Positions 49,578-64,000 of a DNA stretch of 64,000 nt are shown here, piece after piece (the stretch's first letter is position 1; every line of letters starts with the position of its first letter). The notes under the pieces were generated by a model. That model worked only from the letters and a program-made list of their open reading frames with translations. It was not told the origin of the DNA and did no database searches. The DNA is from Bacilli bacterium. GTDB taxonomy: Bacteria > Bacillota_I > Bacilli_A > RF39 > UBA660. The stretch lies in contig JAFRUZ010000002.1 of assembly GCA_017438635.1 (NCBI GenBank), forward strand, positions 623 to 64,622, given 5' to 3'. The position numbers and the translations under genes are program-made.

Positions 49578-51485
49578 TTAAAGTTTTCTACCTTTTTCAA
49601 ACTCTTTAACAGCAGCAGCAGTAAGCACTCCACCACCACCTATAAAGGCAGTAGATCCAACACCAGCTGCTATTGTACCTAATACAGTACCACCAACTGG
49701 TCCAGTAAGAACCACAGCAGCAAGACCAAGAGTACCTAATGTAGCCGCTAGTTTACGACCACCTTTTGTATCTACTAACTCTCTAATTCTTGAGTTAACT
49801 CCATCCTTTATAGCTATAACTTTAGAGCGTACAACTGCCATTGTATTACCATCTATAACTGCAGAATTAACTTCTTCAATAGGAACTTCAGGAACCTCAG
49901 GAGATGATTCAGGTACAGATCCGCTTTGAGTTTCATAATCAACATTAAATTCATTATTATTAGCCTCTAAATCGTCTTCTGTTTTAGTATCCTCGTCATT
50001 AGTACCTTTAATTTTTGCTATAGTTTCTTCTCTTGCTTTAGCATCATCTATTGAATTAGCAATTTCTATAATTTTATCTTCTCCAAGATTGTATTTATCT
50101 GCATTTTTAATAACAGATAGTTTATAATTATCATCATTCATACTTGACACTATATGAACTATTTCAAAATCACGTAAATCAAATGCCTTAGCATCCTCTA
50201 TAGCTACGTTCTTTAAATCATCATATTTAATAGACTCTAATACTCTAACAAAATCTGCAGCACGTAATTCTTTATTAGTACGATGATTTGATACGTAATT
50301 AGACATATACTCCATTATTTTATTCTTGTCATTAGTATTAATAAGTTCTTCAATTTCTTCCTCATTATAAAAATACTTTGCAGAGTTCGAAACATCTGAT
50401 TTTATAGTACTCTTTATTCTATCTACATCTTCATCATTCAAACCATAATCTTTTGCATGATTCACAAATTCTTGCTTGAATGCATCATCATTAATAGTCA
50501 ATAGTATATCACGTATACCTTCATGATTTAAACCAAAATCTTTGAAATTCTTTAAAACCTCAATTCTACTAGATTCTTTTTCCATTGAAAGAACAACCTC
50601 AGCTTTGTCATATGAATCAAGAATTTTATTACTTCTAAGTTCAAATACTTTTAAATAGTCTCTAGACAAGCCTTTAACTCTGTCTAATTCAGCATCATGT
50701 AATTTTAAATGTTCATCTAAAGTCATTACTTTATCTCCAGAATCACTATTCTTTTGTGGTTCAACTGGTTCTGGTGCCTTTGTATTATTCTTTACAAATT
50801 CATTAAATTCAGCACTATACTTTCTTTTTATAGCCATTAAATCTTTATTCATTGAATAATCATTATAAACAGCTGAATCAGGACCTTGTGATGATATAAA
50901 CTGTGTAATTAAGTCCATTTCTTTATATTTTAATTGTTCTTCCTCTAATTTCTTTTGAGCGTTAGCATTAGCTCTTGCTTTAACAGATGCTATTTGACCT
51001 TTGTAACTTGCTATTGCATCATCTGCCATTCTAATTCTATTTAATAAAGATTCTCTTGCTTTTTGTTTTCCTTCACTAAAACTAGCTACTTCTTCTTCTA
51101 ATTTTTTTGCTTTATCATCTTTTTCTTCTTTAAGATGTCCAATTTTAGCAGTTACACTTTTTATTTCTTCACCTTTTTCTTTTATCAAGCGATCATAACC
51201 AGCTATAGCAGGGTTTTTAATTGCAGCTGGAACACCTGTTCTTCTTTCTGCGGTTTCCCTTTTAGAAAGCAAATCAAATAAGTCCATAGATAAATTTTGC
51301 AATTCTAAATCTAATGGTTCTATCTCCTCATCAATTTTTTTAAGATCTTCCTCTAAAATGCCTTCTAATTCTTTTCTTTTTTCCTCAATTTGTTCATCAA
51401 TCTTGTTATTTTCTTCTTCTAGTTTTAATCTTTGTTCTTCTTTTGACTTTAAAACATTTTCTAATGCTTGTACACCTCTGTCCAT
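49578..51485 (-). CDS. Coiled-coil, helical-repeat protein with C-terminal Gly/Ala hydrophobic hairpin
   Basis: N-terminal heptads, ~30-aa helical repeats, C-terminal LAATLGTLGLAAVVLTGPVGGTVLG...; AAGGAGG RBS and TTGCAA-17-TATAAT promoter. Confidence 0.7.
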   Translation of the reverse strand: MDRGVQALENVLKSKEEQRLKLEEENNKIDEQIEEKRKELEGILEEDLKKIDEEIEPLDLELQNLSMDLFDLLSKRETAERRTGVPAAIKNPAIAGYDRLIKEKGEEIKSVTAKIGHLKEEKDDKAKKLEEEVASFSEGKQKARESLLNRIRMADDAIASYKGQIASVKARANANAQKKLEEEQLKYKEMDLITQFISSQGPDSAVYNDYSMNKDLMAIKRKYSAEFNEFVKNNTKAPEPVEPQKNSDSGDKVMTLDEHLKLHDAELDRVKGLSRDYLKVFELRSNKILDSYDKAEVVLSMEKESSRIEVLKNFKDFGLNHEGIRDILLTINDDAFKQEFVNHAKDYGLNDEDVDRIKSTIKSDVSNSAKYFYNEEEIEELINTNDKNKIMEYMSNYVSNHRTNKELRAADFVRVLESIKYDDLKNVAIEDAKAFDLRDFEIVHIVSSMNDDNYKLSVIKNADKYNLGEDKIIEIANSIDDAKAREETIAKIKGTNDEDTKTEDDLEANNNEFNVDYETQSGSVPESSPEVPEVPIEEVNSAVIDGNTMAVVRSKVIAIKDGVNSRIRELVDTKGGRKLAATLGTLGLAAVVLTGPVGGTVLGTIAAGVGSTAFIGGGGVLTAAAVKEFEKGRKL

Positions 51486-51623
51486 AGTCAATTCCTCCTT
51501 TTAAAAGGTTTGCCCCTTTTTTGCGCCCATATTATATCACAGCACAACAAAAATTGCAATATTTTACTACTTTAATAATAACACAAAAAAAAGTTTAAGT
51601 AAACTTTTTTTATCTGTATTTAT

Positions 51624-52328
51624 CTATTTTTTTACATTACCAAATCTTCTATCTCGGTTATAGTATTCTTCTATTGCTCTATCAAAACATTTCTCATCAA
51701 AATCTGGAAAATATTCTGGTGTAAACAAAAACTCTGCATAAGATATTTCCCATAATAAGAAATTACTTATTCTTTGTTCTCCACTCGTTCTAATTACATA
51801 ATCTACATCAGGTAATTTATTATATAATTTTGTACTAAAATACTCTTCTGTTATATCTTTTTCCTCTATTAATCCTTCTTTTAATTCATTTGCTATTTTC
51901 TTTGAAGCATCTACTATTTCAGCTCTACCACCATAGTTTAGACAAAAATTAACTATTAATCCTTTATGATCTTTAGTCCTTTCTTCTAACTTTTTCATAG
52001 AAGAATAAACTTCATCACTAAGTGGTTCTTTCCTACCTGAAAATATTATTTTTATATCATCTTTTTTATATTTTTTACTACTTACACTAAACCATTTCAT
52101 AAACAGATTCATTAAGTAATCTACTTCATCTTTTGATCTTTTAAAGTTTTCTGTTGAAAAAACATATAAACTAAGTACCTCTATATCAGTCTTTCTAGAA
52201 GCATGAAGTATTATCCTTTCTAACATTTTAGAACCCGCTAAATGACCTTCACTTCGTATTTTTCCTCTTTTTTTTGCCCATCTACCATTACCATCTACAA
52301 TAATAGCAACGTGTCTAAGTTTTTCCAT
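51624..52328 (-). CDS. uppS: Undecaprenyl diphosphate synthase
   Basis: HVAIIVDGNGRWA, FSTENFKR, NYGGR, RTSGEQRISNF. Confidence 0.95.
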   Translation of the reverse strand: MEKLRHVAIIVDGNGRWAKKRGKIRSEGHLAGSKMLERIILHASRKTDIEVLSLYVFSTENFKRSKDEVDYLMNLFMKWFSVSSKKYKKDDIKIIFSGRKEPLSDEVYSSMKKLEERTKDHKGLIVNFCLNYGGRAEIVDASKKIANELKEGLIEEKDITEEYFSTKLYNKLPDVDYVIRTSGEQRISNFLLWEISYAEFLFTPEYFPDFDEKCFDRAIEEYYNRDRRFGNVKK

Positions 52329-52367
52329 ATTCCCTCCTCATAATTAATTATATAATAAATAGTTTTA

Positions 52368-52395
52368 AAAAAACAAGGACTTACATCCTTGTTTA
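52368..52395 (-). terminator. Intrinsic terminator closing the 63565-52393 gene run
   Basis: AAACAAGGA-TGTAAG-TCCTTGTTT followed by T-tract. Confidence 0.75.
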
Positions 52396-53976
52396 ATCAA
52401 ACATATCACTTATTGTGTAAACATATATTATATCTTCTATAGAAAAATCACTTTTTTCTATAACATTATAATATAGTATCTTATTTATATCATTTATTAT
52501 AGTATCAATATTAGAAATATCTTCTAAAGAATTTTCAGGAATATTTATACTGCTTAATTCATACTTATCAGTAATAACTTGTTTTATATCTTTATTATTC
52601 TCTATATTTATATTATTTATAATATTGTTATACGGACTAAGTATAAGTTTATTTATTTCATCTATTACTTCATCAGTTTTTAGGTCTTGCTCACCTATTA
52701 ATTTATCTTGATATATGTAATATGAATTAGCAAGTTTAAACAACGATATTAGTTCACTATTACCATTAAAAAGTAAGAACTTTTCATTGAAAATATCGGT
52801 ATCTAATTCATCATAAAAACCCTTTAATTCCATTATCTGATTATCTATATCCATATATAGTTTATCTATTGCTTCATCTTTATTCTTCTTATTTTTTGAA
52901 GCCCAAGTAGCTTTAGTTAACTTATACATTAATCCTAATTTAACTTGTTCTTCACCACTTAATAAATAAACTTTTTTAGATAAATCACTTAGCTTACTCT
53001 CTGCTTTTTTGATTTCACCAGACTTAGTTTTTACTAAACCTTTATATTTATCTTTTTCATCATATAACTTTTTCATATCATCTAAGATATAGTTATACTT
53101 TAAAACATAAGAATATTCTTCAAGAGTATGTTTTAATTTAATAAACTCTTCAATAACACCATCAATATTATCACCAATAGCATTTAAATCAGTATAACTA
53201 CCTATAACACTATCTATTTTTTCTTTAGTGAAATCATTTGGATTAAGTTCTTTATTCATAAACATATCATACACACTAGATATATTTATAATTTCATTAT
53301 CATTAAGTTCTTTTAAACTTTGATATTGTTTTATTAAACTATTATTAAAATCTTTTAATAGTTTTTGTTGTTTTAGTGCTAAAAACTTATCAAAATTTGA
53401 TTGATATTTATAATAAAGAGTCTTAAATGTTAATTCCATATGAGTAATTATATTTGATTCTTTCCAGTATAATTTTTCAAATGCTTCACGCAGAGTTCTA
53501 TTATTTAAATCATCCTTATTTTGTAAGAAAATCTTCATATATTCATAAAATACTGGACTATATGAGAAATCGCTTAATTGCAAATTAACTCCTGCTTCTT
53601 TATACATTGATAACACACTAGATATTGTTTTATTAACATCTTCATATGTTACTTTATCTTTACTCATAATATAAAGCATTTTATCAAATTCCATCTTTTC
53701 ATAAGAAGTATTATACTTACTAAACCAATGATATTCATTAGCTATTTTATTAATTAATTCACTTTTATCTGCATATTTTTCTTTTGGTAATTTAGCAAGT
53801 ACTGCTTCTTTTCTAGATTTGATTTCTTTTATAACATCTTCTTCTTTTACTTTATACTTTTCTAGTTCTTTAGAAATACTATCTTTATATTTCTCTATAT
53901 TTTTTTTATTATTTTTAGGTAAAGTGGATAATACTTCTTTTTGAACTTCTATTTCTTTTTTTAACTCTTCTATCAT
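52393..53976 (-). CDS. Hypothetical coiled-coil cytoplasmic protein
   Basis: 527 aa, K/E-rich helical, AAGGAG RBS. Confidence 0.7.
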   Translation of the reverse strand: MIEELKKEIEVQKEVLSTLPKNNKKNIEKYKDSISKELEKYKVKEEDVIKEIKSRKEAVLAKLPKEKYADKSELINKIANEYHWFSKYNTSYEKMEFDKMLYIMSKDKVTYEDVNKTISSVLSMYKEAGVNLQLSDFSYSPVFYEYMKIFLQNKDDLNNRTLREAFEKLYWKESNIITHMELTFKTLYYKYQSNFDKFLALKQQKLLKDFNNSLIKQYQSLKELNDNEIINISSVYDMFMNKELNPNDFTKEKIDSVIGSYTDLNAIGDNIDGVIEEFIKLKHTLEEYSYVLKYNYILDDMKKLYDEKDKYKGLVKTKSGEIKKAESKLSDLSKKVYLLSGEEQVKLGLMYKLTKATWASKNKKNKDEAIDKLYMDIDNQIMELKGFYDELDTDIFNEKFLLFNGNSELISLFKLANSYYIYQDKLIGEQDLKTDEVIDEINKLILSPYNNIINNINIENNKDIKQVITDKYELSSINIPENSLEDISNIDTIINDINKILYYNVIEKSDFSIEDIIYVYTISDMFD

Positions 53977-54106: not shown

Positions 54107-57100
54107 TTATTTTATTATTAAATATTGATATACTTCTCCAATATAATTATTTCCATCATACAGAGATATAACTACTCTATATGTTCCAGATACTAAATTA
54201 CTCTTAGTAGTTAAGAATATATTTGTATTATTTGCAGGATATCTTGTTAATAAGAATTCATTTGGTGTACTAGTAGTTGTAAATTGATTTTGGAAATAAT
54301 CTCGTATATCTACTAACTCATACTCTGTTGAGAAAGGTGTATTATATTTTCTTCTTTTCATAGATATACGTATTTGTGGATTACTAAGCATAGAACTGTA
54401 TTTGTATGTAAATACTTCTGTGTTATTGTCATTAAGATTCTTGCCTGTATCTTTATCTATTATAACTTGTTTTTCAGGCAATGTCACATCTAATCCGTAA
54501 ACACTGTCAAGTACATTAAACGGAATTGTAGTATAATCCGAAGATACTAATCCGTAATATATACCATCAGGTGAGCTAAACGACTCTATTTTCATAGTAT
54601 ACTGACCAGGAGCCAAAGATTTTGTCGTATGAAGTTTAATTCTTGCAAGTACGTTTGAAATCCTTTCAGCAATCTTAATTCTGGTTGTTCCATCGACTCT
54701 CGGATAATGTAAAACTCCATCTAGTTCATATGATACCCCAAGTAAACTAGCCCCAGTTACTTGATCATTATTAGAATCAAATATTGTTATTTTAATACCC
54801 ATTTGACTTTCAAGAGCAGCTGTATCGTAAACTGGAACGCCTTGATATGTATTTTGAACATAATTAGTTGTTACATTAAGTCTTACTTCATCACCAGGAT
54901 ATATATTATTAGTACTTAAAGTACCTGTAACATCTATAACTGATTCATCACCATGAATCAAGTTGTATTGCATTGCTGCTTGTTGTAAACCTAAAACCCC
55001 TACAATAGTTTGTCCACCACTATTTCTTAATTCTATTAGTAATGATTTTCCTATTACATTTGAATTAATACCACTTTCACTGAAATCTACTATAGCAATG
55101 AATTCCTCTTGTGCTATATCATTAGTTGTATCAAAATATGCAACATTGTTAGCAGAATCACTATAAGTGTTAGTAGGACTTGTACTACCCATCCGTATAA
55201 ACCGTGAGAAATCATAAGTTACTTCTTGATTCTGTTGAAACTCTGTCTGTGCAGCAGCATAATCTGCAGCACTAACTATATAGTAATAGTAACTTGGATC
55301 AGCATGATTATGTAAATCTATTAGTGTTATCTTTGTTTTTTCAGGTAAAACATAATCTGAAACTAAAGTACGATAACATCCAGTTTGATAGAAGTTTTGT
55401 TGTTGTACAAATAGTGAATAGTAATTACTATAACTACCAGTTGTAGTAATATTTATAGCATCACTTGCAAATAAACTGTAATGTTTACCAGGAGCTGCTG
55501 TACCTTCATAATCGTTTGTAGTAAATAGTGCTCTAGTTAAATGTATTTCAACATTAACTCTCTCTATTATACTTTCTAGATCGTTTACTGGTGTTACTAC
55601 TACTAGTGAGATAACAACATCACCCATATTACCAGAAGTATACAAGTTCTTTGAATGGTACAAGTAAAATTGTAATACTGGCGTCATTATCGAATTTTCA
55701 CGTTTATAATTAATCGTACCATTTATAGGATGATCTGGATCAGATAAGAATACTGTTTCACCATTGTTCATCCAACCTGATGACGGTGTCTTTATCGCTA
55801 GCCCCATATTATTGTCAGCAGCTTGTTGACTACTAGCAATTCTTGGTATTGTTTCTGGATCTACTAGATTAACACCATCCGCTAAATCTGCATAATTAAA
55901 TCCTACGATAGAGAATACAGCATTTGGTCCAGAATGCATTACTAAAGGTAAATCAACAGTACCAAGAGTCAAGTATTTTGATGCTGTAATTGTCATTGGA
56001 TAAGATGATACTTGTTCACCAATAGACCACATATAGTAATCTGCATCATCTGGCGTTGGAGTAATATAATCAACTTTTATCTTTCCAGAATTATCCGCCA
56101 AATCAAAGTTAGAATAAAATCCATCTACAGTAATATCATGAGTTTGTCTATAGTGTTCACCAAGTACATAACTACCTCTACTATACATGTATAAATCTGT
56201 TGAAGGTACTACATCATCATAATCATATTGTTCATTATATAATCCTGTAGATATAACTCCTTCTCTTGTTCTTTGATACATTCCAAAGAATGTCATTCCA
56301 TGTACTTCACCTGGAACAGATATATTTTGAGTTTTGGCAATGTTTAAAACTTTTCCTTCAAGAATATATACTCTATTATCAACATTCTTTGTAACTGTTT
56401 TATTTTCTTCATCAATATCTACTGCTGCAAGTGTTTCAACATTGTTTATATCTACAGCACTTGTAAATTCTTCAAGTAAGTTAGCACCTGTTTTTAAATA
56501 TAATGTCGTTCCATTTTTTATTTTTAATTCTGCAATTCTACTTATTGAGAATTCTTCATCATCATAATCATTTGTTCTATCCTTTGCACCATATAATTCA
56601 AAACAAGAATTATTAATTATTACTCTATCTGCTCTTTGTAATGAAATGTTTCTCTTTATATCATTAGCACTTCCATAATTATCGATTGTTATATAACTGT
56701 AACCTGATGTAGAAGAAGCATTACCACTACCAAATATAGAACCATCAATATTGAAATTATTATGTGTCGCAGCATCTATATATATATCTATTCCTCTAGT
56801 TACACTGATGAATGAGAAGTCGTAGTTTGCACTACCTGAAGCATTGGCTTCACCACCACCAAATACTGTTCCACCAATTGAAATATCACCTTGAACTAAA
56901 TTAGAATTATTAGGAATAGTATTATAACCGATGTTTACTCTTGTATAACCATATACTCTTGAGGTATTAGCTCCTCCGTAAACATTTCCACCAATAGTTG
57001 CACCCGCAATGTTTACTGTACTTATTGAATTGTTATTTGCTTCAATACCAGTTTGAGCGGCATTACCACCACCAAAGACATTTCTACCTACATTTGTAGT

Positions 57101-60100
57101 TCCATCTATTGTAACTGTAGCATTTCCATTTACAACTGCAGCAGAACCATTACCACCGGCATATACACTATCTCCAATAGTTGATGAAGAAATATATACA
57201 TTTGTATTTCCAGTTACAACACCGGCATTACCTCCACCGTATATTGAACCGATTATACTCGAATTTACAAAATTTACAGTAGTGTTATTATTAACAGCAG
57301 CTTGGTTACCACCACCGTATAATTGTCCACCAATTGCTACACCATTACAATTTATATTTGCATAATTAACTGGTGCTAAGTTACCTCCACCATAAACATT
57401 GTGAACATAACCTTTAGTAAGATTTATATCAGTAGTACCAGTAAGACCACCACGGTTATTACCGCCATATAAATTAGAAACGATTAAGTTTTCACTATTT
57501 TGTACAAATGCATCTCCAGAAGATGATATTCCTACAATAGATTGTTCATCCATTTCAAAATTAGCCACTGGATCATTAGAATAAATAGTAAATGTAAATG
57601 AATGAGTAGCACCAGGTGCTAGTTCAAATGGATTATTTTCATCATATTTATTTATTTGATTAAAAGTATATATTCCGTCATCTTCTGTTATGTCATGATT
57701 ACTATAATTTGAATAAAGAGTTGAACCTTGATCCTTAAGTACACCAGACCATTCTGTTATTGTTTTATCACTATTATTAGTAACAGTAACATTAACAGTT
57801 ACCACAGAAGTATAATCTGTGTCTTGCCAATATGGATCTACTGCTACAGCACTAGTAGTAATATCCATATCTATTTCTGTTTCGTTATTAAATGTTGTTT
57901 TATTAGTTTGGGCAGTACTTATATGACTTGTTGTAACAGTACCAGATTGATTTGAACCACCAAATACATTTGTAGCAGTACCACTCTTTAAAATTATATT
58001 TGAAGTTGTAAGACCTGCTTGATTACCGCCACCAAATATACTTCTAGTGTTCGTACCATCTAAAGTTACAGTTGAAGTTGTAGTTGTAGCTTGATTACCA
58101 CCACCGTACACATAAGTAGCTCTTCCAGAGTTTAAATTAACATATGTTGTAGTTGTTGTACCACCTGCATTATTGCCACCATATACAGAAGTTGCTCTAC
58201 CACCATTAATATTTACCGTACTTTGTGGTACCGTTCCAGAGGAATCTGATCCTCCGAATATTGAGCCGTTAACTGTAGCACCATTTTGATTTACTGTTGT
58301 TGATGTCGTAATACTTGCACTTTTACCACCACCAAATACATCGGTAGCAGTTCCGCTTGTTAAAGTAACTAACGTTTGAGTAGTAGTAGCTAATCGACCA
58401 CCACCATAAATAGTACCTGCACTAGCACCATTTAAAGTAACATTTGCACTTGAAGTAACACCACCAGCATTATTACCACCATATACATAGGTAGCACTTC
58501 CACTAGTTAAAGTTACATTAGAAGTTGTTACATTACCAGATTGATTAGAACCACCATATATTTCTCCGCAATTTGCACCATCTAAAAGTACACTTGTTAC
58601 CGGTACACCAGTTTGATTACCACCACCATAAGTGTAATCCACATCTCCGCCATATAGTTTAACTTGTACAGTACCATTTGGAGTACCTGCAGCATCGTTT
58701 CCACCAAAGACATTAGTAATATCTCCACCATTTATTGTTACTAATACATTACCTTCAACATATGGTGTATAAGTACTAGATCCTTTACCACCACCGAAAA
58801 CTGAACCTATGTTACCTTTGTTTACGGTTACTCGTGTATCATAACTAGAAACTGTATTAGTATTAGTAGCACCATTTACTGTACCATAAGCACTACCTCC
58901 GAATACTTCTCCAGAAATAGTAGGTCCAGGATTTATACTGCTATCTCCAATTGTTACTCTAACGTTTTGGGTAACGTAAGTACCAGGGTGATCATTATCA
59001 TTAGCTATATAACCACCTTTTCCTCCACCAAAGACATTAGCAACAGTTCCATTTACTATATTTACATTTGTGCTTCCATAAATTGTTCCTTTTTCATTAG
59101 AACCACCATAGACAGCACCAGATACTGTGCCTCCAGTCATTTCAATATTAACTGTAGAACTAATACTTGAAGATCCAGAACCATTGTTGTTACCTCCGCC
59201 ATAGACAGAACCACTTATTGTTCCACCATGTACCCATATATTGGTCGTTGTTGTTCCACTTGTTTTACTAACCCCTACAGCCGAGAAATTACCTCCACCA
59301 TAGACATTACCATTAACAAGAGCATCCTCATCTATAATTACATTAGAATTGTCATTTGATCCGATTGTTTGAGACCCTGATTTACCATTACCGTTACCAA
59401 ATACTGAACCGGCTTCAGCTCCCCACATAGTGTTATTATTGCTTGCCATTATTGTAGTATCTCCGATTTCTGCTCCGCCGCCAACATATACTAGTGAAGA
59501 TCCTCTTAAAGTTCCATCACCTTCACTACCATCATAACCGTTTGATCCACCAAAGACGCTGTAATTTATTTTACCACCAGTAAGTTGAATAATTCTGTTA
59601 CCATATGTAGCAGTAGTACCTGCTCCACCAGTTATCATATCGATGGTTCCACCTTTTTGATAAATATAAGTATCATTTACACTACCCCTGTTAGTAGCAG
59701 TAAGTGGTCCACCGATTAAATTATATATATATCCACCAAGAATTGTAGCTTGTCTTGCAGCGTTATGAGTACCACCGTAACGACCACCTACATATATACC
59801 AGTAGTATGGTCTATCTTACCTCCACCAAAACTACCACTTTTTACTGTTAATTCAATAAATGTTTCTTTACCATTAATAGCACTGTAAGCTCCTCCCCAA
59901 GTACCAGAAGCACAGTAATATACATCAAGTTTTGTATTATCATTTGCTACTCTATCATAGTCATTGCCATACTCTACTAAACCATCCATACTTATGGTAG
60001 GTACATTATTTGTAGAGTTATATGGTGTATTAGTATTTGAAATAGACATATAATGACCTTGTTCTATCATAAGTTTATAATTTTTGTTACTGTTACTACT

Positions 60101-61768
60101 AGAGTTACCTCCAACTACTGCTATGAAGTTACCATTTGAACCTGTTCTAGTTATTCGTCTACCTATTTTAACATTGTGATAGTTTCCATAGAAACCACCA
60201 TTTCTACTTGTAGGATTAGATACATCACTAAATTCTATATCATCATCTTCAAGATTATAAAAATCAAAACTACAATTTATTCTTATATTTTCAATTGTAG
60301 TATCTGCATAAGCATTTACTTGAATACCGTTTATAGTAGTTGTACTCCACCAACCACCACTTGTACTAACCGTTGCAACTGTCCAGGTAGCATTAGAATC
60401 ATAATTAGTAGTACCATCGTTATATTCAGTTGTTAATGTAAATGGTTTATTTTGACCACTAGCCCAAGTAGTATTCATACTATTAGTCATAACTATTATA
60501 TTGGTATCTCTTGTTACCAAATAGTAATAAGTAGTATTATTAGCTGCGATGTTTGGATTATTATTTGAATCATAGTATTGCATAAGTTCATAGTAATCGC
60601 AACCATTGGTAGCAGTACAGGATGTAACGACGTTACCATCTGCATCATAGAAATTTGCTCCTACTGTAGCACCTCTAGCAAAGTGTTGAGCTTTATAATA
60701 ACCAGCAACATTTTTGTTACCGATATCTTCGTTATAATCTTCATGTGTTTGATCAGGTACTAATGGTAAAGTATCCGGATCAACTAAACTCATACTATTA
60801 TTTCTTAATCTATAATAATTATTACCTTCGGTATAGTATTCACCACTAGGTATTAGCCTGTAATAAGTACAAGTATTTTGGTTACAAGTACCACTAGTAT
60901 ATAATTGCCCTCTGTTACTATAGTAACCTACTCTTGATTGACCTCTTGTTAATATTACTTGCGCATAATATCCACCCATATCATAAGGCAAGTATGAATC
61001 TACTACTGTAACTGATGATACAAGTGGTTGCATACCTTTAGCTTTTAAATCTCCAAAAGCTGTTGACCAGTTTCTGCTTGTAGAAACAGTAGTACTTGTA
61101 GCTACTACCCAGTTAGCATTAAAAGTTATTTCTATTGCTTCAGGTTCACCACTAGAATATGTAACAGGAACTTTTGCAAATCTTAAATAATGTCCTGCAT
61201 CATATCTAAGAGTTACACCTTGATAATTAGTAGTCCATCCATTAAATGCTTTACCTGCCGGCCTTTTTGTAAATGGATTATCAATAAGTTCTATTTCTAT
61301 ATAATCATCACTAGTACTATTAGTACCGTTATTATTAACAGGATAAACTTTATAGTATCTATATATACGTTGTGTTTCATCATTTGATACATACCCTATT
61401 AAATTACTATTATCAGCATCTGTACTATCATATATTACTTCAGTTTGTACTAAGTTAGCATCACTATAAATGTGTTGATTTGAGCCACTTGGAAGTGTTC
61501 CATTACTACTATAAGTGTAATTAAGACCCATATAATAATTATAATCTTTTCTAAGATCATCTACAGATACCACTGTACTTGTCATTCCTGAATTTTCATT
61601 TCCATATCCAGGAAACTTACTACTAAACAGTGCATATGAAGGAAGAAAACTGATAATATTTAGTAGTATAACTAAAAAAAAGGATACAAGAAAAACTAAA
61701 CGTATCGTTTTTGGAACACGCTTAACTTTTAAATTAATAGTTTTAAGTATTAATTTAAATTTTTCCAT
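54107..61768 (-). CDS. Giant surface protein (2553 aa): Gly-repeat beta-solenoid with CBM2-like insert; putative adhesin
   Basis: N-terminal basic + hydrophobic segment ending SYALF; many (V/I)(Y/F)GG(G/S/N) repeats; V.VTNNSDKTITEW...LAPGATHSFTF. Confidence 0.8.
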   Translation of the reverse strand: MEKFKLILKTINLKVKRVPKTIRLVFLVSFFLVILLNIISFLPSYALFSSKFPGYGNENSGMTSTVVSVDDLRKDYNYYMGLNYTYSSNGTLPSGSNQHIYSDANLVQTEVIYDSTDADNSNLIGYVSNDETQRIYRYYKVYPVNNNGTNSTSDDYIEIELIDNPFTKRPAGKAFNGWTTNYQGVTLRYDAGHYLRFAKVPVTYSSGEPEAIEITFNANWVVATSTTVSTSRNWSTAFGDLKAKGMQPLVSSVTVVDSYLPYDMGGYYAQVILTRGQSRVGYYSNRGQLYTSGTCNQNTCTYYRLIPSGEYYTEGNNYYRLRNNSMSLVDPDTLPLVPDQTHEDYNEDIGNKNVAGYYKAQHFARGATVGANFYDADGNVVTSCTATNGCDYYELMQYYDSNNNPNIAANNTTYYYLVTRDTNIIVMTNSMNTTWASGQNKPFTLTTEYNDGTTNYDSNATWTVATVSTSGGWWSTTTINGIQVNAYADTTIENIRINCSFDFYNLEDDDIEFSDVSNPTSRNGGFYGNYHNVKIGRRITRTGSNGNFIAVVGGNSSSNSNKNYKLMIEQGHYMSISNTNTPYNSTNNVPTISMDGLVEYGNDYDRVANDNTKLDVYYCASGTWGGAYSAINGKETFIELTVKSGSFGGGKIDHTTGIYVGGRYGGTHNAARQATILGGYIYNLIGGPLTATNRGSVNDTYIYQKGGTIDMITGGAGTTATYGNRIIQLTGGKINYSVFGGSNGYDGSEGDGTLRGSSLVYVGGGAEIGDTTIMASNNNTMWGAEAGSVFGNGNGKSGSQTIGSNDNSNVIIDEDALVNGNVYGGGNFSAVGVSKTSGTTTTNIWVHGGTISGSVYGGGNNNGSGSSSISSTVNIEMTGGTVSGAVYGGSNEKGTIYGSTNVNIVNGTVANVFGGGKGGYIANDNDHPGTYVTQNVRVTIGDSSINPGPTISGEVFGGSAYGTVNGATNTNTVSSYDTRVTVNKGNIGSVFGGGKGSSTYTPYVEGNVLVTINGGDITNVFGGNDAAGTPNGTVQVKLYGGDVDYTYGGGNQTGVPVTSVLLDGANCGEIYGGSNQSGNVTTSNVTLTSGSATYVYGGNNAGGVTSSANVTLNGASAGTIYGGGRLATTTQTLVTLTSGTATDVFGGGKSASITTSTTVNQNGATVNGSIFGGSDSSGTVPQSTVNINGGRATSVYGGNNAGGTTTTTYVNLNSGRATYVYGGGNQATTTTSTVTLDGTNTRSIFGGGNQAGLTTSNIILKSGTATNVFGGSNQSGTVTTSHISTAQTNKTTFNNETEIDMDITTSAVAVDPYWQDTDYTSVVTVNVTVTNNSDKTITEWSGVLKDQGSTLYSNYSNHDITEDDGIYTFNQINKYDENNPFELAPGATHSFTFTIYSNDPVANFEMDEQSIVGISSSGDAFVQNSENLIVSNLYGGNNRGGLTGTTDINLTKGYVHNVYGGGNLAPVNYANINCNGVAIGGQLYGGGNQAAVNNNTTVNFVNSSIIGSIYGGGNAGVVTGNTNVYISSSTIGDSVYAGGNGSAAVVNGNATVTIDGTTNVGRNVFGGGNAAQTGIEANNNSISTVNIAGATIGGNVYGGANTSRVYGYTRVNIGYNTIPNNSNLVQGDISIGGTVFGGGEANASGSANYDFSFISVTRGIDIYIDAATHNNFNIDGSIFGSGNASSTSGYSYITIDNYGSANDIKRNISLQRADRVIINNSCFELYGAKDRTNDYDDEEFSISRIAELKIKNGTTLYLKTGANLLEEFTSAVDINNVETLAAVDIDEENKTVTKNVDNRVYILEGKVLNIAKTQNISVPGEVHGMTFFGMYQRTREGVISTGLYNEQYDYDDVVPSTDLYMYSRGSYVLGEHYRQTHDITVDGFYSNFDLADNSGKIKVDYITPTPDDADYYMWSIGEQVSSYPMTITASKYLTLGTVDLPLVMHSGPNAVFSIVGFNYADLADGVNLVDPETIPRIASSQQAADNNMGLAIKTPSSGWMNNGETVFLSDPDHPINGTINYKRENSIMTPVLQFYLYHSKNLYTSGNMGDVVISLVVVTPVNDLESIIERVNVEIHLTRALFTTNDYEGTAAPGKHYSLFASDAINITTTGSYSNYYSLFVQQQNFYQTGCYRTLVSDYVLPEKTKITLIDLHNHADPSYYYYIVSAADYAAAQTEFQQNQEVTYDFSRFIRMGSTSPTNTYSDSANNVAYFDTTNDIAQEEFIAIVDFSESGINSNVIGKSLLIELRNSGGQTIVGVLGLQQAAMQYNLIHGDESVIDVTGTLSTNNIYPGDEVRLNVTTNYVQNTYQGVPVYDTAALESQMGIKITIFDSNNDQVTGASLLGVSYELDGVLHYPRVDGTTRIKIAERISNVLARIKLHTTKSLAPGQYTMKIESFSSPDGIYYGLVSSDYTTIPFNVLDSVYGLDVTLPEKQVIIDKDTGKNLNDNNTEVFTYKYSSMLSNPQIRISMKRRKYNTPFSTEYELVDIRDYFQNQFTTTSTPNEFLLTRYPANNTNIFLTTKSNLVSGTYRVVISLYDGNNYIGEVYQYLIIK

Positions 61769-61797
61769 GTATTACTCCTTTTTTATTTTTTTATTTA

Positions 61798-62829
61798 TTA
61801 ACTTGGATTAGTTGTAATTTGAAATTGGAATTCTAAATCTCCAGATGAAGAACCATTTTCACAGTCAACATCTTGTCCTTCAAGCCAGATATATACTCTG
61901 TATTTTGTAATACCTGCTTTTAAATCAAATATTTGTTGGTTGCTTGCAAAACCTGTTGATGTTTTATAATTAGCAGTTACATTAGAAAAATATGCAGGAT
62001 AGTTAGCAGCAGTTGCTTGTCCTAATGTAATGTTTTGAGATTCATTTATTATATTTGATACTCCAGAATAATTAAGTGGAGCGTTGTTAGCAGTTATTGT
62101 TTGTCCAAATAGTGAATAAGCATTAGCTATTCCTGTTGGAGAATGGGTATTTGCATTAGGTTCCCAAATATATAAATCAGAACTAGTTCCTCCTCTTAGT
62201 GATTGAATAGAACCTTGAGCTGATCCTATAGGAACTGTTCCTTCTTCTAGAAAAGCAATTCTTATAGCATTTTCTACTCCTGCATTATTATTGCCAGTAA
62301 AGGTAACTGTTGAATTTGGAGTTAGATATCCATCAGATGATTTATCAACTTTTAAGAAGAAATCAAACGCTAAGTAATCTCCTTCATCACCACGAGCCTC
62401 AGGACTATTCACAGTGGTAATAATATAGTCACCATTTTCATTTCCTAGAATTACTCCACGGTACATAGTCATAAATCCACTAGAAACACTTCCAACAGTA
62501 GAAGTTGGTATTAATGAATCTGGGAATTGATTAAGACTGGCAGGATAAGTTGAAACTGCTCCTTCCAATTCTTCTTGGTTGATAATTGTTTTCCAATTAA
62601 GACCATCTACAGATATTTCAATACCACCTTGCGATTCAACATGAACATTCAAAGAATTTACTGATACTATCCTGTTTGCAGTAAACCAAGCATATGTTGA
62701 AACACTTAGCATAAATCCTGTAAATACTAAGAGAAAAAATAGTAATAATAATCTATTTTTTCTACGTTCTTTGTATTTTGGGTCTTCTAAATAATCTAAA
62801 TTTTTATCCTTCTTTTGTAGCATTTTCAT
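61798..62829 (-). CDS. TasA/CalY-like protein with SipW-class signal peptide
   Basis: ...MLSVSTYAWFTAN...; C-terminal YIWLEGQDVDC. Confidence 0.72.
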   Translation of the reverse strand: MKMLQKKDKNLDYLEDPKYKERRKNRLLLLFFLLVFTGFMLSVSTYAWFTANRIVSVNSLNVHVESQGGIEISVDGLNWKTIINQEELEGAVSTYPASLNQFPDSLIPTSTVGSVSSGFMTMYRGVILGNENGDYIITTVNSPEARGDEGDYLAFDFFLKVDKSSDGYLTPNSTVTFTGNNNAGVENAIRIAFLEEGTVPIGSAQGSIQSLRGGTSSDLYIWEPNANTHSPTGIANAYSLFGQTITANNAPLNYSGVSNIINESQNITLGQATAANYPAYFSNVTANYKTSTGFASNQQIFDLKAGITKYRVYIWLEGQDVDCENGSSSGDLEFQFQITTNPS

Positions 62830-63565
62830 CTACCCCCTCAATATGAGATTCAATTATATCCATATGCATTTTTATTTCTCCACCAATAAGAGGATCCAAG
62901 CAATCTGGATCTGGTCCAGATAAATAAACAACAATCATAAACTTATCAACAGCATTTGGAGGCATCTTTGCTCTTTGTTCCAAAACTGCTATTTTATCTG
63001 AATAAAATGGCGTTGTTAATACATTAGAATCTTCTGTTCTTTTTTCTGGTGTTTTTGTATCACCATTAATTTTGGCATATACTTTTTCTTGACCATTTCG
63101 ATATATTACTATTCTAATAGCTTCATCAACATGTCTAGTAACATCATCTATATCTATTTCATACCAATAATCAATAGTTCTTTGACCAGTATTTTCTGTA
63201 TAAAAAGTATAAATCATAAGATTTTCATCATTATGTGCACCATCTTTTTCAAAATGGTTATTCTCTTTTAGTTTTTGATAAACCCAATTATCTCCGACAT
63301 TATCCATAAACTCTAATTCTTTAGCAAATAATCTTCTTTGTGACCTTTTTTCTATTTTGTCTTCGTATATGATTAATCCTGTTTTTAAAGCAAAGTTTGG
63401 ATCAAGTGTAATAGTAAATTTACCACCATTATATATAACTCTTAAAATAAGAAATAAAACAAACAATACTAAAAAAAGTACTAACCCAACAATTTTAACC
63501 GTTTTTAAAGTTATCTTTCTTCTTTTGACTTTCTTAGCAGTTACTTCAACCTCTTTTATTGCCAT
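62804..63565 (-). CDS. Membrane-anchored paralog of the TasA-like subunit
   Basis: N-terminal TM; EAIRI and YLSGPDPDC motifs shared with 61798-62829. Confidence 0.65.
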   Translation of the reverse strand: MAIKEVEVTAKKVKRRKITLKTVKIVGLVLFLVLFVLFLILRVIYNGGKFTITLDPNFALKTGLIIYEDKIEKRSQRRLFAKELEFMDNVGDNWVYQKLKENNHFEKDGAHNDENLMIYTFYTENTGQRTIDYWYEIDIDDVTRHVDEAIRIVIYRNGQEKVYAKINGDTKTPEKRTEDSNVLTTPFYSDKIAVLEQRAKMPPNAVDKFMIVVYLSGPDPDCLDPLIGGEIKMHMDIIESHIEGVDENATKEG

Positions 63566-63720
63566 ATAATCACACTTTCTCCATTATATTTTATATATAA
63601 TAATTTTATCATATTATAGAGAGTAATGCAATAAAACATAGACCTAAAATAGCAAAAATATTGTATAAATTTTCAAAAAATGATATACTTTTTTTATAAG
63701 TAAAATAAGAGGTGATGTTT

Positions 63721-64000
63721 TTGACTATCCGCAGGCGTTTGGGCAGGCTTATTGCTTGCATTGCCCTACTCTTTTTAATACTAGTTGTAACTGATACATA
63801 CTCAAAATATTTGAGCGAAGCAACTGGTACTACAGACATTGATGTTGCAAGATGGAGAATCCTAGTAAATGGTCAAGATATAAGAAATAATGCTAATATA
63901 TCTCAAGTTATTACACCATATCTTTATTCTAACAATCATATTGCTTCGAATATAATAGCACCGACATCTACAGGATACTTTGATATAATTATAAATTGTG
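63721..64000 (+). CDS. TasA/CalY-like protein with SipW-class signal, truncated at window edge
   Basis: AGAGGTG RBS + TTG; MTIRRRLGRLIACIALLFLILVVTDTYSKYLSEATG...VARWRILVNG...IAPTSTGYFDIII; open to the end of the window. Confidence 0.72.
   Translation, partial: MTIRRRLGRLIACIALLFLILVVTDTYSKYLSEATGTTDIDVARWRILVNGQDIRNNANISQVITPYLYSNNHIASNIIAPTSTGYFDIIINC

Follow-up and report, generated by a model that had tools for sequence, protein, structure and literature searches.

The last ~10 kilobases (kb) of the 64,000-nucleotide (nt) stretch of Bacilli DNA analysed here (the window; G000:C6:623-64622) carry p223 and the p253-p343-giant genes, which are the distal end of a two-module gene cluster of ~22 kb. 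With somewhat better than even probability this cluster encodes a SipW-dependent surface-fibre system that resembles TasA and Tafi fibres, is of the CoCoPALM type and includes a nucleoside triphosphatase (NTPase) module. Gene content, motifs, synteny, paralogy, the active-site status of the peptidases and the predicted beta-sandwich folds carry this reading. The source genome (904 kb in 18 contigs, ~28% G+C) is 79.6% complete; genes past the window end were read from locus L001 (C6:62000-80000; C6 position = L001 + 61999, window position = L001 + 61377), and coordinates are collected in Table 1.

Between window positions 54107 and 64000, three co-directional minus-strand genes (p253, p343 and that of a giant protein) are accompanied by the divergent plus-strand gene p223. 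There is a 26-nt overlap between the end of p253 and the beginning of p343, and a 30-nt spacer between p343 and the giant gene. The start of p223, originally placed at 63721, is corrected to 63712 (GTG) or 63715 (ATG), and the gene runs past the window end to a full length of 223 amino acids (aa). Each of the four proteins has one N-terminal membrane-like segment, and none has a significant match in Pfam or NCBIfam. Promoter-like sites from a promoter and terminator scan were not above shuffled expectation. As expected from the original prediction of a sortase-independent system, no locus protein has a C-terminal LPxTG and no sortase is encoded in the locus; the genome has four sortase genes, all on other contigs.

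A membrane segment followed by a SipW-type cleavage motif, [ST]-[YF]-[AGS]-x-[FY], had been described in p343 (S44-T-Y-A-W-F49), the giant (S44-Y-A-L-F48) and p223 (T29-Y-S-K-Y33); the motif is real and kept across each family, and p223 also has the reported IAPxSxG motif, as IIAPTSTGYFD. Motif positions, numbered relative to the predicted cut, were counted in homologues from 79 related loci. In the p343 family S/T at P3, Y/F at P2, A at P1, W at P1′ and F at P2′ each occur in 52/52 sequences, and A47, W48, F49 and T50 are invariant among 25 aligned sequences. p223 homologues have T/S at P3 and Y/F at P2 (59/60 each), followed by A/S/G at P1, K and then Y at P2′ (60/60 each), and the giant family has T/S at P3 (31/31), Y/F at P2 (29/31), G/S/A at P1 (31/31) and E/D at P1′ (27/31). 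The combination of a small P1 and an aromatic P2′ residue is found in 100% of p343 (52/52), p385 (33/33), p215 (52/52), p223 (60/60), p209 (13/13) and p324 (47/47) sequences, and in p202 in 22/23. Altogether the motif is conserved in eight families (giant, p343, p223 and, beyond the window, p215, p202, p209, p324 and p385); as every family conserves it, the motifs exceed chance. The statement that p253 lacks a cleavage motif was too strong: the canonical form is absent, but a variant, Y-x-G-G↓x-F (↓, putative cut), is present and conserved (Y/F 64/64, G at the P1 position 60/64, F 64/64). Paralogue p385 passes the SipW-cognate signal model TIGR04088 (19.2 bits, cut-off 19), and this model is the commonest NCBIfam match in the p343 family (6/25 members at E<=0.1); p343 of the window has no match to it. 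PMC10269814 reports that Phe at P2′ of TasA hinders LepB, SipW being the dedicated peptidase of TasA.

The enzymes expected to act on such sites are encoded just past the window end, where the original prediction had proposed to look: two active SipW-type peptidases (TIGR02228, cut-off 51.85; 76.8 bits for L001:3682-4428 and 70.4 bits for L001:11624-12877), both retaining catalytic Ser and His (SxSM and THR motifs). They look dedicated, because the genome also has an ordinary LepB-type signal peptidase (171 bits). In the second-module enzyme two Cna_B domains (143 bits) follow the C-terminal membrane segment; its orthologues are either 170-260 aa long without Cna_B or 375-406 aa long. This gene and p209, 3 nt apart in the source genome, form a single open reading frame (ORF) in six loci (L062:7046-8188, L023, L030, L035, L046 and L058), and in the L062 fusion residues 8-183 match the 417-aa SipW (E 1e-31) and residues 204-376 correspond to p209 (E 1e-36), whose own membrane segment and motif are included. 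These fusions tie the peptidase to a subunit.

Two further SipW paralogues (171 and 244 aa; TIGR02228 25 and 20.5 bits) keep both membrane segments; since the catalytic Ser and His are absent in every aligned member of both, catalytically they are not SipW members and are referred to as dead. Their profile gave only weak matches to SEC11A/C in the Protein Data Bank (PDB; E 0.2) and no match to SipA (4N31). SipA/LepA of Streptococcus pyogenes, an inactive peptidase-like pilus chaperone needed for pilus polymerisation, is a precedent for such proteins, although SipA serves sortase-built pili and is of LepB-type origin, whereas the paralogues here are SipW/SEC11-like.

Other SipW genes were seen in the same genome. 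At C9:1587-5894 (L108) a SipW gene (TIGR02228, 108.7 bits) has three or four small proteins on its flanks that carry motifs of the SFA↓xF type. C10:3304-10202 (L109) encodes a 233-aa protein (LGFA↓AF), a SipW of 380 aa with multiple membrane segments, a DUF5305 protein (54.4 bits against a cut-off of 29) and a pair of ~578-aa proteins (GYS↓AF), and the SipW and DUF5305 genes are a TafD/TafG-like pairing. Further motif-bearing proteins are encoded at C1:1101-1823, C2:111391-112080 and C14:15412-17658, the last also with a Listeria-Bacteroides repeat.

The synteny survey proposed with the original prediction showed the cluster to be syntenic in dozens of uncultured Bacilli metagenome-assembled genomes (MAGs). 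A scan of species-representative genomes gave 399 stretches, of which the 79 loci were kept; the MAGs to which they belong bear the labels Bacilli, Tenericutes, Mycoplasma, Clostridium sp. CAG:914, CAG:628 and CAG:609, and we take CAG genomes such as these to be placed in GTDB orders RF39 or RFN20. Counts were made where the contig leaves room, and are not independent because loci were picked via p343 and several come from one genome. The recurrent order is dead SipW, p324, a 3.6-kb gap, SipW, p215, p223 (opposite strand), p253, p343, giant. p343 directly follows p253 in 56/56 loci, the giant comes next after p343 in 46/52 (and further along the locus in five of the six misses) and p223 points away from p253 in 56/59; p215 occurs in 49/57, a SipW upstream in 47/54, p324 within 8 kb in 32/42 and a dead SipW within 8.6 kb in 24/42. 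In the source genome, neighbouring cluster genes are separated by 1-15 nt, save for ~110-120 nt on either side of p385, and p223 lies tail-to-tail with p215 and head-to-head with p253.

Several of the motif-bearing proteins are related to each other. p385 and p343 are paralogues (E 1e-86), as are p202 and p223 (profile comparison 99.7%), and p202 and p215 are related over their full length with signals removed (75.7%, E 2.4e-5). Sequence features said to be common to p253 and p343 are present in both: AIRI (NAIRIAF in p343, EAIRIVI in p253) and a C-terminal block in which WLEGQDVDC of p343 parallels YLSGPDPDC of p253. This EGxDxDC block is aligned by hhalign (probability 83.6%, E 8e-6, 35 columns; 79-88% in a second comparison), and the AIRI block falls outside the profile alignment. 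Neither family has a Pfam model; p343 has 2512 clusters at 90% identity, and p253, searched against 1.84 billion representatives, has 1138 clusters (50% identity) at E<=1e-3, 742 at <=1e-10 and 210 at <=1e-30. Tandem arrays of four p343-like genes of 380-550 aa, in genomes G005, G102 and G224, suggest lineage-specific expansion of the main subunit.

The p343 model (pLDDT, the predicted score in the local distance difference test, 82.9; predicted template modelling score, pTM, 0.75) is a beta-sandwich. Against 48,161 chains only two matches reach Z>=5, the thread of Saci_0406 (Z 5.3) and the fibre of TasA (Z 5.1), in a range that, according to the search tool, is common for unrelated folds. The alignments cover 150 residues of 7pnb_A (root-mean-square deviation 6.6; Foldseek E 0.04) and 148 of 8aur_A (4.3; E 0.011), and the next matches, at Z 4.1-4.2, are the CS17 pilus, cannulae, Hyper2 and CfaB. 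The two best p343 matches are donor-strand fibres, but the similarity to the TasA-like fold is weak. The p215 model matches TasA (5of2) with Foldseek probability 0.90 (E 0.027, rank 11) and 7ueg_A at Z 4.5. PDB sequence and profile searches with the p343 alignment and four further locus alignments gave nothing meaningful. Residues 45-67 of p343 are its most conserved segment (W48, F49, T50, N52 and V62 invariant) and the only long stretch left unplaced after the helix (pLDDT <50), and residues 43-54 of p215 are likewise conserved and unplaced. In these models, a conserved segment left free after the predicted cut would be the behaviour expected of a donor strand. Parts of the AbpX preprint treat the aromatic at position 2 of the mature protein as a clamp fixing the register of the donor strand and place calcium sites at the strand-groove interface; by analogy, the acidic EGQDVDCEN loop of p343 may have such a calcium or strand-groove role.

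The same proteins could instead be a non-polymerising SipW-dependent surface or secreted set, such as an adhesion complex or wall-associated layer, in which the motif is only a recognition site and the sandwich folds are generic. The weak fold matches, the absence of Peptidase_M73 membership and the presence of the motif on at least nine other proteins of the genome, beside two further SipW genes, are consistent with this. However, the conserved N-terminal segment is unplaced in monomer models, both leading structural matches are donor-strand fibres, the aromatic kept invariant at mature position 2 corresponds to the clamp outlined in the AbpX preprint, and the paralogue sets mirror the major and minor pilins of Tafi as portrayed in sections of PMC11821415 and PMC12337348, so that a set that does not polymerise appears decidedly unlikely.

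The 3.6-kb gap that separates p324 from SipW, and that measures 3.56-3.9 kb in 47/47 loci, holds a trio of genes, p513, p372 and p322 (L001:4439-8092), found in 50 (worst E 1.6e-175), 51 and 50 of the 79 loci, respectively. p513 is the best-conserved protein of the cluster (80% mean column identity vs 45-54% for the subunits). It has a strong membrane segment (residues 56-74), then a charged Leu-rich helical stretch, with a weak match to ftsL_broad (E 0.086, residues 65-116), and after this the Walker A and B motifs. In the PDB, the p513 profile finds McrB chains alone (E 7.5e-4 to 8.7e-4, query 192-370), the McrB model NF008457 is matched with E 8.9e-6, far below that model's cut-off, and the GTPase motif G-T-I-N-N-D-D-S can be read as NxD then D, or as NxxD. 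p372, separated from p513 by 12 nt, matches PF09823 (DUF2357; 42.7 bits, cut-off 23.3) and corresponds to the McrC N-terminal domain only, with no detectable nuclease domain. Pfam searches with p322 and p513 family members gave scattered weak matches only, and an EAL-like assignment for p322 was dropped, having no Pfam support. Public records label the trio proteins ‘hypothetical’ or ‘DUF2357 domain-containing’.

A McrBC defence island unique to this genome is ruled out by the conservation of the trio in 47/47 loci. More broadly, the trio could be an anti-phage, CoCoNuT-like type IV restriction system lodged in the fibre locus and functionally unconnected with it, which would agree with the match of the AAA part of p513 to the PADLOC candidate model PDC-M26A (E 4.7e-33) and with an AAA-DUF2357-AAA arrangement in G050 that has neither peptidase nor subunit genes. 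We consider this very improbable given that the trio occupies the same position in all 47 loci, that the most conserved protein, p513, is membrane-anchored, that p372 and p322 have no PADLOC match and p372 no nuclease domain, that AAA and p343 genes co-occur in the family of the source genome, and that the association with signal peptidases is already in print. In that family (34 genomes), 11/11 p343-positive genomes are also p513-positive and 21/34 have neither; among 300 sampled genomes of the same class, p513-like genes were found in 105 and p343-like genes in 31. Four of five distant regions have a core of p253-like, p343-like, ‘STFAWFT’ protein, Sip, AAA, DUF2357 (617-664 aa), Sip and small YAWF protein genes; Sip genes lie on both sides of AAA-DUF2357 in three of the five, and in L116 a single Sip precedes AAA. 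In G050, a genome of 3.6 Mb from the same class, locus L117 (G050:C3:5388-10162) consists of a 625-aa DUF2357 gene between two p513-like AAA genes, with no membrane-anchor match on the AAA genes and no peptidase or subunit genes nearby. This is probably a CoCoNuT-like restriction system of the ordinary sort, and it makes a useful outgroup.

The original prediction knew of no description of this architecture, which no longer holds: Tafi has the same logic (sections of PMC11821415 and PMC12337348), and a McrB-like GTPase with signal peptidases is what the relevant paragraph of PMC11090510 calls CoCoPALM. That paragraph (Bell et al., eLife 2024) describes McrB-like GTPases of the NxD kind that form one clade, carry a fused segment resembling FtsB (membrane part and coiled coil) and are associated with ‘pilus assembly factors’ of the signal-peptidase family; with two rows of the supplement, where the label ‘pilin assembly protein SipA-like’ (PDB 4N31) is used, it makes up the CoCoPALM account, analysis being deferred to a later paper. 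In its predicted proteins the locus fits this account: the GTPase is McrB-like and has a membrane segment at its N-terminus, a McrC homologue (DUF2357) is encoded beside it, and genes of the signal-peptidase family adjoin, again in Bacillota. The same text, as far as it covers CoCoPALM, is silent on a SipW-cognate motif, eight substrate families, active and dead peptidases, a two-module layout and a giant protein. A literature search on this locus type in these lineages found no description besides that paragraph, and in the library searched no other relevant paper uses the name CoCoPALM. The kind of locus is thus named in print only in passing and has never been studied; what is new is the set of substrate families with the motif they share, together with the dead peptidases, the layout in two modules, the giant and the link of CoCoPALM to the TasA-type signal class.

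With TapA-SipW-TasA of B. subtilis and CalY/TasA of B. cereus (PMC9674648, PMC4292775 and PMC9245690), the cluster shares a SipW encoded beside its substrates, a T-aromatic-A↓x-aromatic site, sortase independence and a beta-sandwich subunit with a free N-terminal strand. Unlike TasA, the main subunits are larger (343/385 aa) and outside Peptidase_M73, and the cluster has as many as eight substrate families along with two dead peptidases and an NTPase module; a TapA homologue was not recognised in the locus. In Tafi, sections of PMC11821415 and PMC12337348 describe a dedicated peptidase and a helper, major and minor pilins, a larger tip protein, a one-helix jelly-roll membrane protein proposed as anchor, and strand donation without chaperone or usher. 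The locus has the same logic (peptidase, helper, major and minor pilins, tip, membrane anchor), whereas Tafi is archaeal, uses Tat signals in the type system, lacks an NTPase and has a far smaller tip protein; DUF5305, the TafG helper, has no match in the locus, the TafD/TafG-like pair being on contig C10 instead. The sipW-bsaA-bsaB-bsaC operon of C. perfringens, from the portions of PMC11580942 devoted to it, likewise combines SipW with several remote TasA-like paralogues, operons with several such paralogues per SipW possibly giving heteropolymers. Its oligomers are membrane-anchored, not wall-linked, and export depends on an energy-using machine encoded elsewhere: the large protein from sipW-bsaA-bsaB needs a type IV pilin for secretion. 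It differs in that BsaA subunits are locked by an N-E-K isopeptide triad and the helper machine is type IV pilus-related, not McrB-like.

The giant has ~25 [FYVI][GA]G[GSA] rungs between residues 647 and 1636, beta-helix-like, and belongs to a family of 269 proteins of 1400-4500 aa. It has no Pfam, NCBIfam or PDB sequence match, and giant and p343 family records carry only the names ‘hypothetical’ or ‘beta strand repeat-containing protein [Bacilli bacterium]’. A position at the fibre tip is what we infer for it. Alternatively, the cluster could be a wall-crossing export machine, in which small SipW-processed subunits form a short NTPase-driven pseudopilus that pushes the folded giant, and perhaps p343, through peptidoglycan. 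Type II secretion pseudopili push proteins in a comparable manner, an NTPase module lies within the locus and the giant closes the p253-p343 unit in 46 of 52 loci; the type IV pilin requirement of the C. perfringens large protein (the same portions of PMC11580942) points the same way. The distant regions argue otherwise: four loci with the core show no giant homologue by position (the giant profile was not searched), with only unassigned ORFs of 830-860 aa upstream and no ORF there matching the profiles of other families than those listed for the core, and the core is therefore not dedicated to the giant. Moreover, the NTPase is McrB-like, not an extension ATPase of the PilB/GspE type, and no platform protein was seen. 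An export machine is accordingly judged unlikely.

For the surface-fibre system favoured here, the following mechanism is proposed. The eight families would be inserted in the membrane by an N-terminal signal anchor (basic n-region, ~20 hydrophobic residues), and the two dedicated SipW-type peptidases would cut after the small residue of [ST]-[YF]-[AGS]↓x-[FY]. The freed N-terminus, with its aromatic at position 2, could then act as the donor strand that completes the beta-sandwich of a neighbour, as in TasA, AbpX and Tafi. p343 and p385 are likely the main subunits, with p215, p223, p202, p209 and p324 in minor or adaptor roles; p253, like TafF, is a candidate for a base close to the membrane, and the 2553-aa beta-helix protein would be a displayed adhesin or payload. 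The two dead SipW paralogues may hold or pass on precursors, and a membrane-anchored ring of the McrB-like NTPase, with its DUF2357 partner and p322, may gate or power assembly from the cytoplasmic side. In its most novel form, which we offer tentatively as a possibility that is rather unlikely in full, the cluster would be a surface-filament machine of a new class in Gram-positives: a membrane-anchored McrB-type GTPase ring and McrC-like plug co-opted from restriction systems gates or powers, on the cytoplasmic side, the SipW-dependent donor-strand assembly (or the release or retraction) of a heteropolymeric TasA-like fibre, with dead SipWs as chaperones and a ~2,500-residue beta-helix adhesin.

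Besides the modest Z scores, several findings weigh against a fibre system of this kind. No window protein matches Peptidase_M73 (PF12389, cut-off 22.5 bits) and the whole genome has none over the cut-off; p215 comes nearest (15 bits, E 0.022; 2/22 family members at E<=0.1, best 0.0041). When signal-free profiles were compared with M73-positive proteins of related genomes, p215 gave 75.8% (32 columns), p209 25.9% and the others <2%, and the top structural matches of p215 are generic lectin or Cna-type sandwiches. P2′ of the giant family is aromatic in only ~10/31 sequences, and so not conserved. The giant family is conserved along its entire length, which makes the giant unlike a variable tip adhesin, and it has no detectable pilin-like domain (hhalign of all subunit families and M73-positive proteins, all probabilities <=0.2%). 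p253 may itself be cleaved, since it has the variant motif Y-x-G-G↓x-F, and its role as a base at the membrane is, like cleavage, polymerisation, the other subunit roles and NTPase coupling, inferred from sequences and models. The CoCoPALM NxD signature is ambiguous in p513, because HMMER aligns NNDD ungapped to NTAD of McrB. The system is also patchy, occurring in 11/34 genomes of its own family.

None of the donor-strand fibres described from monoderm bacteria and archaea (TasA, BsaA, ABP, threads, cannulae, Tafi) is known to need an NTPase for its assembly. If the proposal is true, a McrB-like motor in such a locus would be a new principle of assembly or control, and would clearly show how part of a restriction system can be recruited to serve the cell surface. 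The system is a common one: the NTPase occurs in 105 of the 300 class genomes sampled, and the p253 and p343 clusters are as counted above, all annotated ‘hypothetical’. The cluster takes up ~2% of a roughly 1-Mb gut Bacilli genome, which suggests that attachment, to host, mucus or partner cells, is central to lifestyle. Because it predicts cleavage sites, the model can be tested directly on metaproteomes that already exist.

Table 1 Genes, putative cleavage sites and intergenic region of the cluster. Plain numbers are window positions; the prefix L001 marks positions in the adjoining locus.
Feature	Position	Strand	Description or basis
Giant, 2553 aa	54107..61768	-	N-terminal membrane segment residues 24-42, S44-Y-A↓L-F48 motif, ~900-aa beta-rich C-terminal region
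Giant S-Y-A-L-F codons, putative SipW site after A46	61625..61639	-	Family alignment
p343, 343 aa, candidate main subunit	61798..62829	-	Predicted helix 17-43, segment 45-67, beta-sandwich 68-343, EGQDVDCEN loop
p343 T45-Y-A↓W-F49 codons, putative SipW cleavage after A47	62683..62697	-	Family alignment
p253, 253 aa	62804..63565	-	One membrane segment (23-41), variant motif Y45-N-G-G↓K-F50, C-terminal block in common with p343
p253/p223 divergent intergenic region, 146 base pairs	63566..63711	.	Promoter-like site, minus strand, 63612-63583
p223, first 96 of 223 aa	63712..64000	+	Small subunit-like; T29-Y-S↓K-Y33, IAPTSxGYFD; gene end L001:3006
p215	L001:3033-3680	-	Carries motif
Active SipW, 248 aa	L001:3682-4428	-	TIGR02228
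DUF2357 protein p372, 372 aa	L001:4439-5557	-	PF09823
McrB-like p513, 513 aa	L001:5570-7111	-	AAA+ profile
p322, 322 aa	L001:7124-8092	-	Member of the trio
p324	L001:8108-9082	-	Carries motif
Dead SipW paralogue, 171 aa	L001:9087-9602	-	TIGR02228, 25 bits
p385	L001:9714-10871	-	p343 paralogue, carries motif
p209	L001:10991-11620	-	Carries motif
Active SipW with two Cna_B, 417 aa	L001:11624-12877	-	TIGR02228
p202	L001:12890-13498	-	p223 paralogue, carries motif
Second dead SipW paralogue, 244 aa	L001:13498-14232	-	TIGR02228, 20.5 bits

Downstream of the giant (window 49578-53976), two Lys/Glu-rich proteins of 527 and 637 aa that belong to no family are encoded on either side of uppS (undecaprenyl-diphosphate synthase; 51624-52328). 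Of these, the 527-aa one is free of hydrophobic segments, the 637-aa one finishes with a Gly/Ala-rich hydrophobic C-terminal tail, and the motif is in neither; having no signal or motif and looking cytoplasmic, they were not counted as cluster members. Just past the other end of the cluster (L001:14507-18000) are a small HNH-like ORF with a weak IscB-domain match, a GH25 endolysin with PG_binding_1, and holin-like and tail-fibre-like ORFs, phage-type genes that are probably the end of a prophage.

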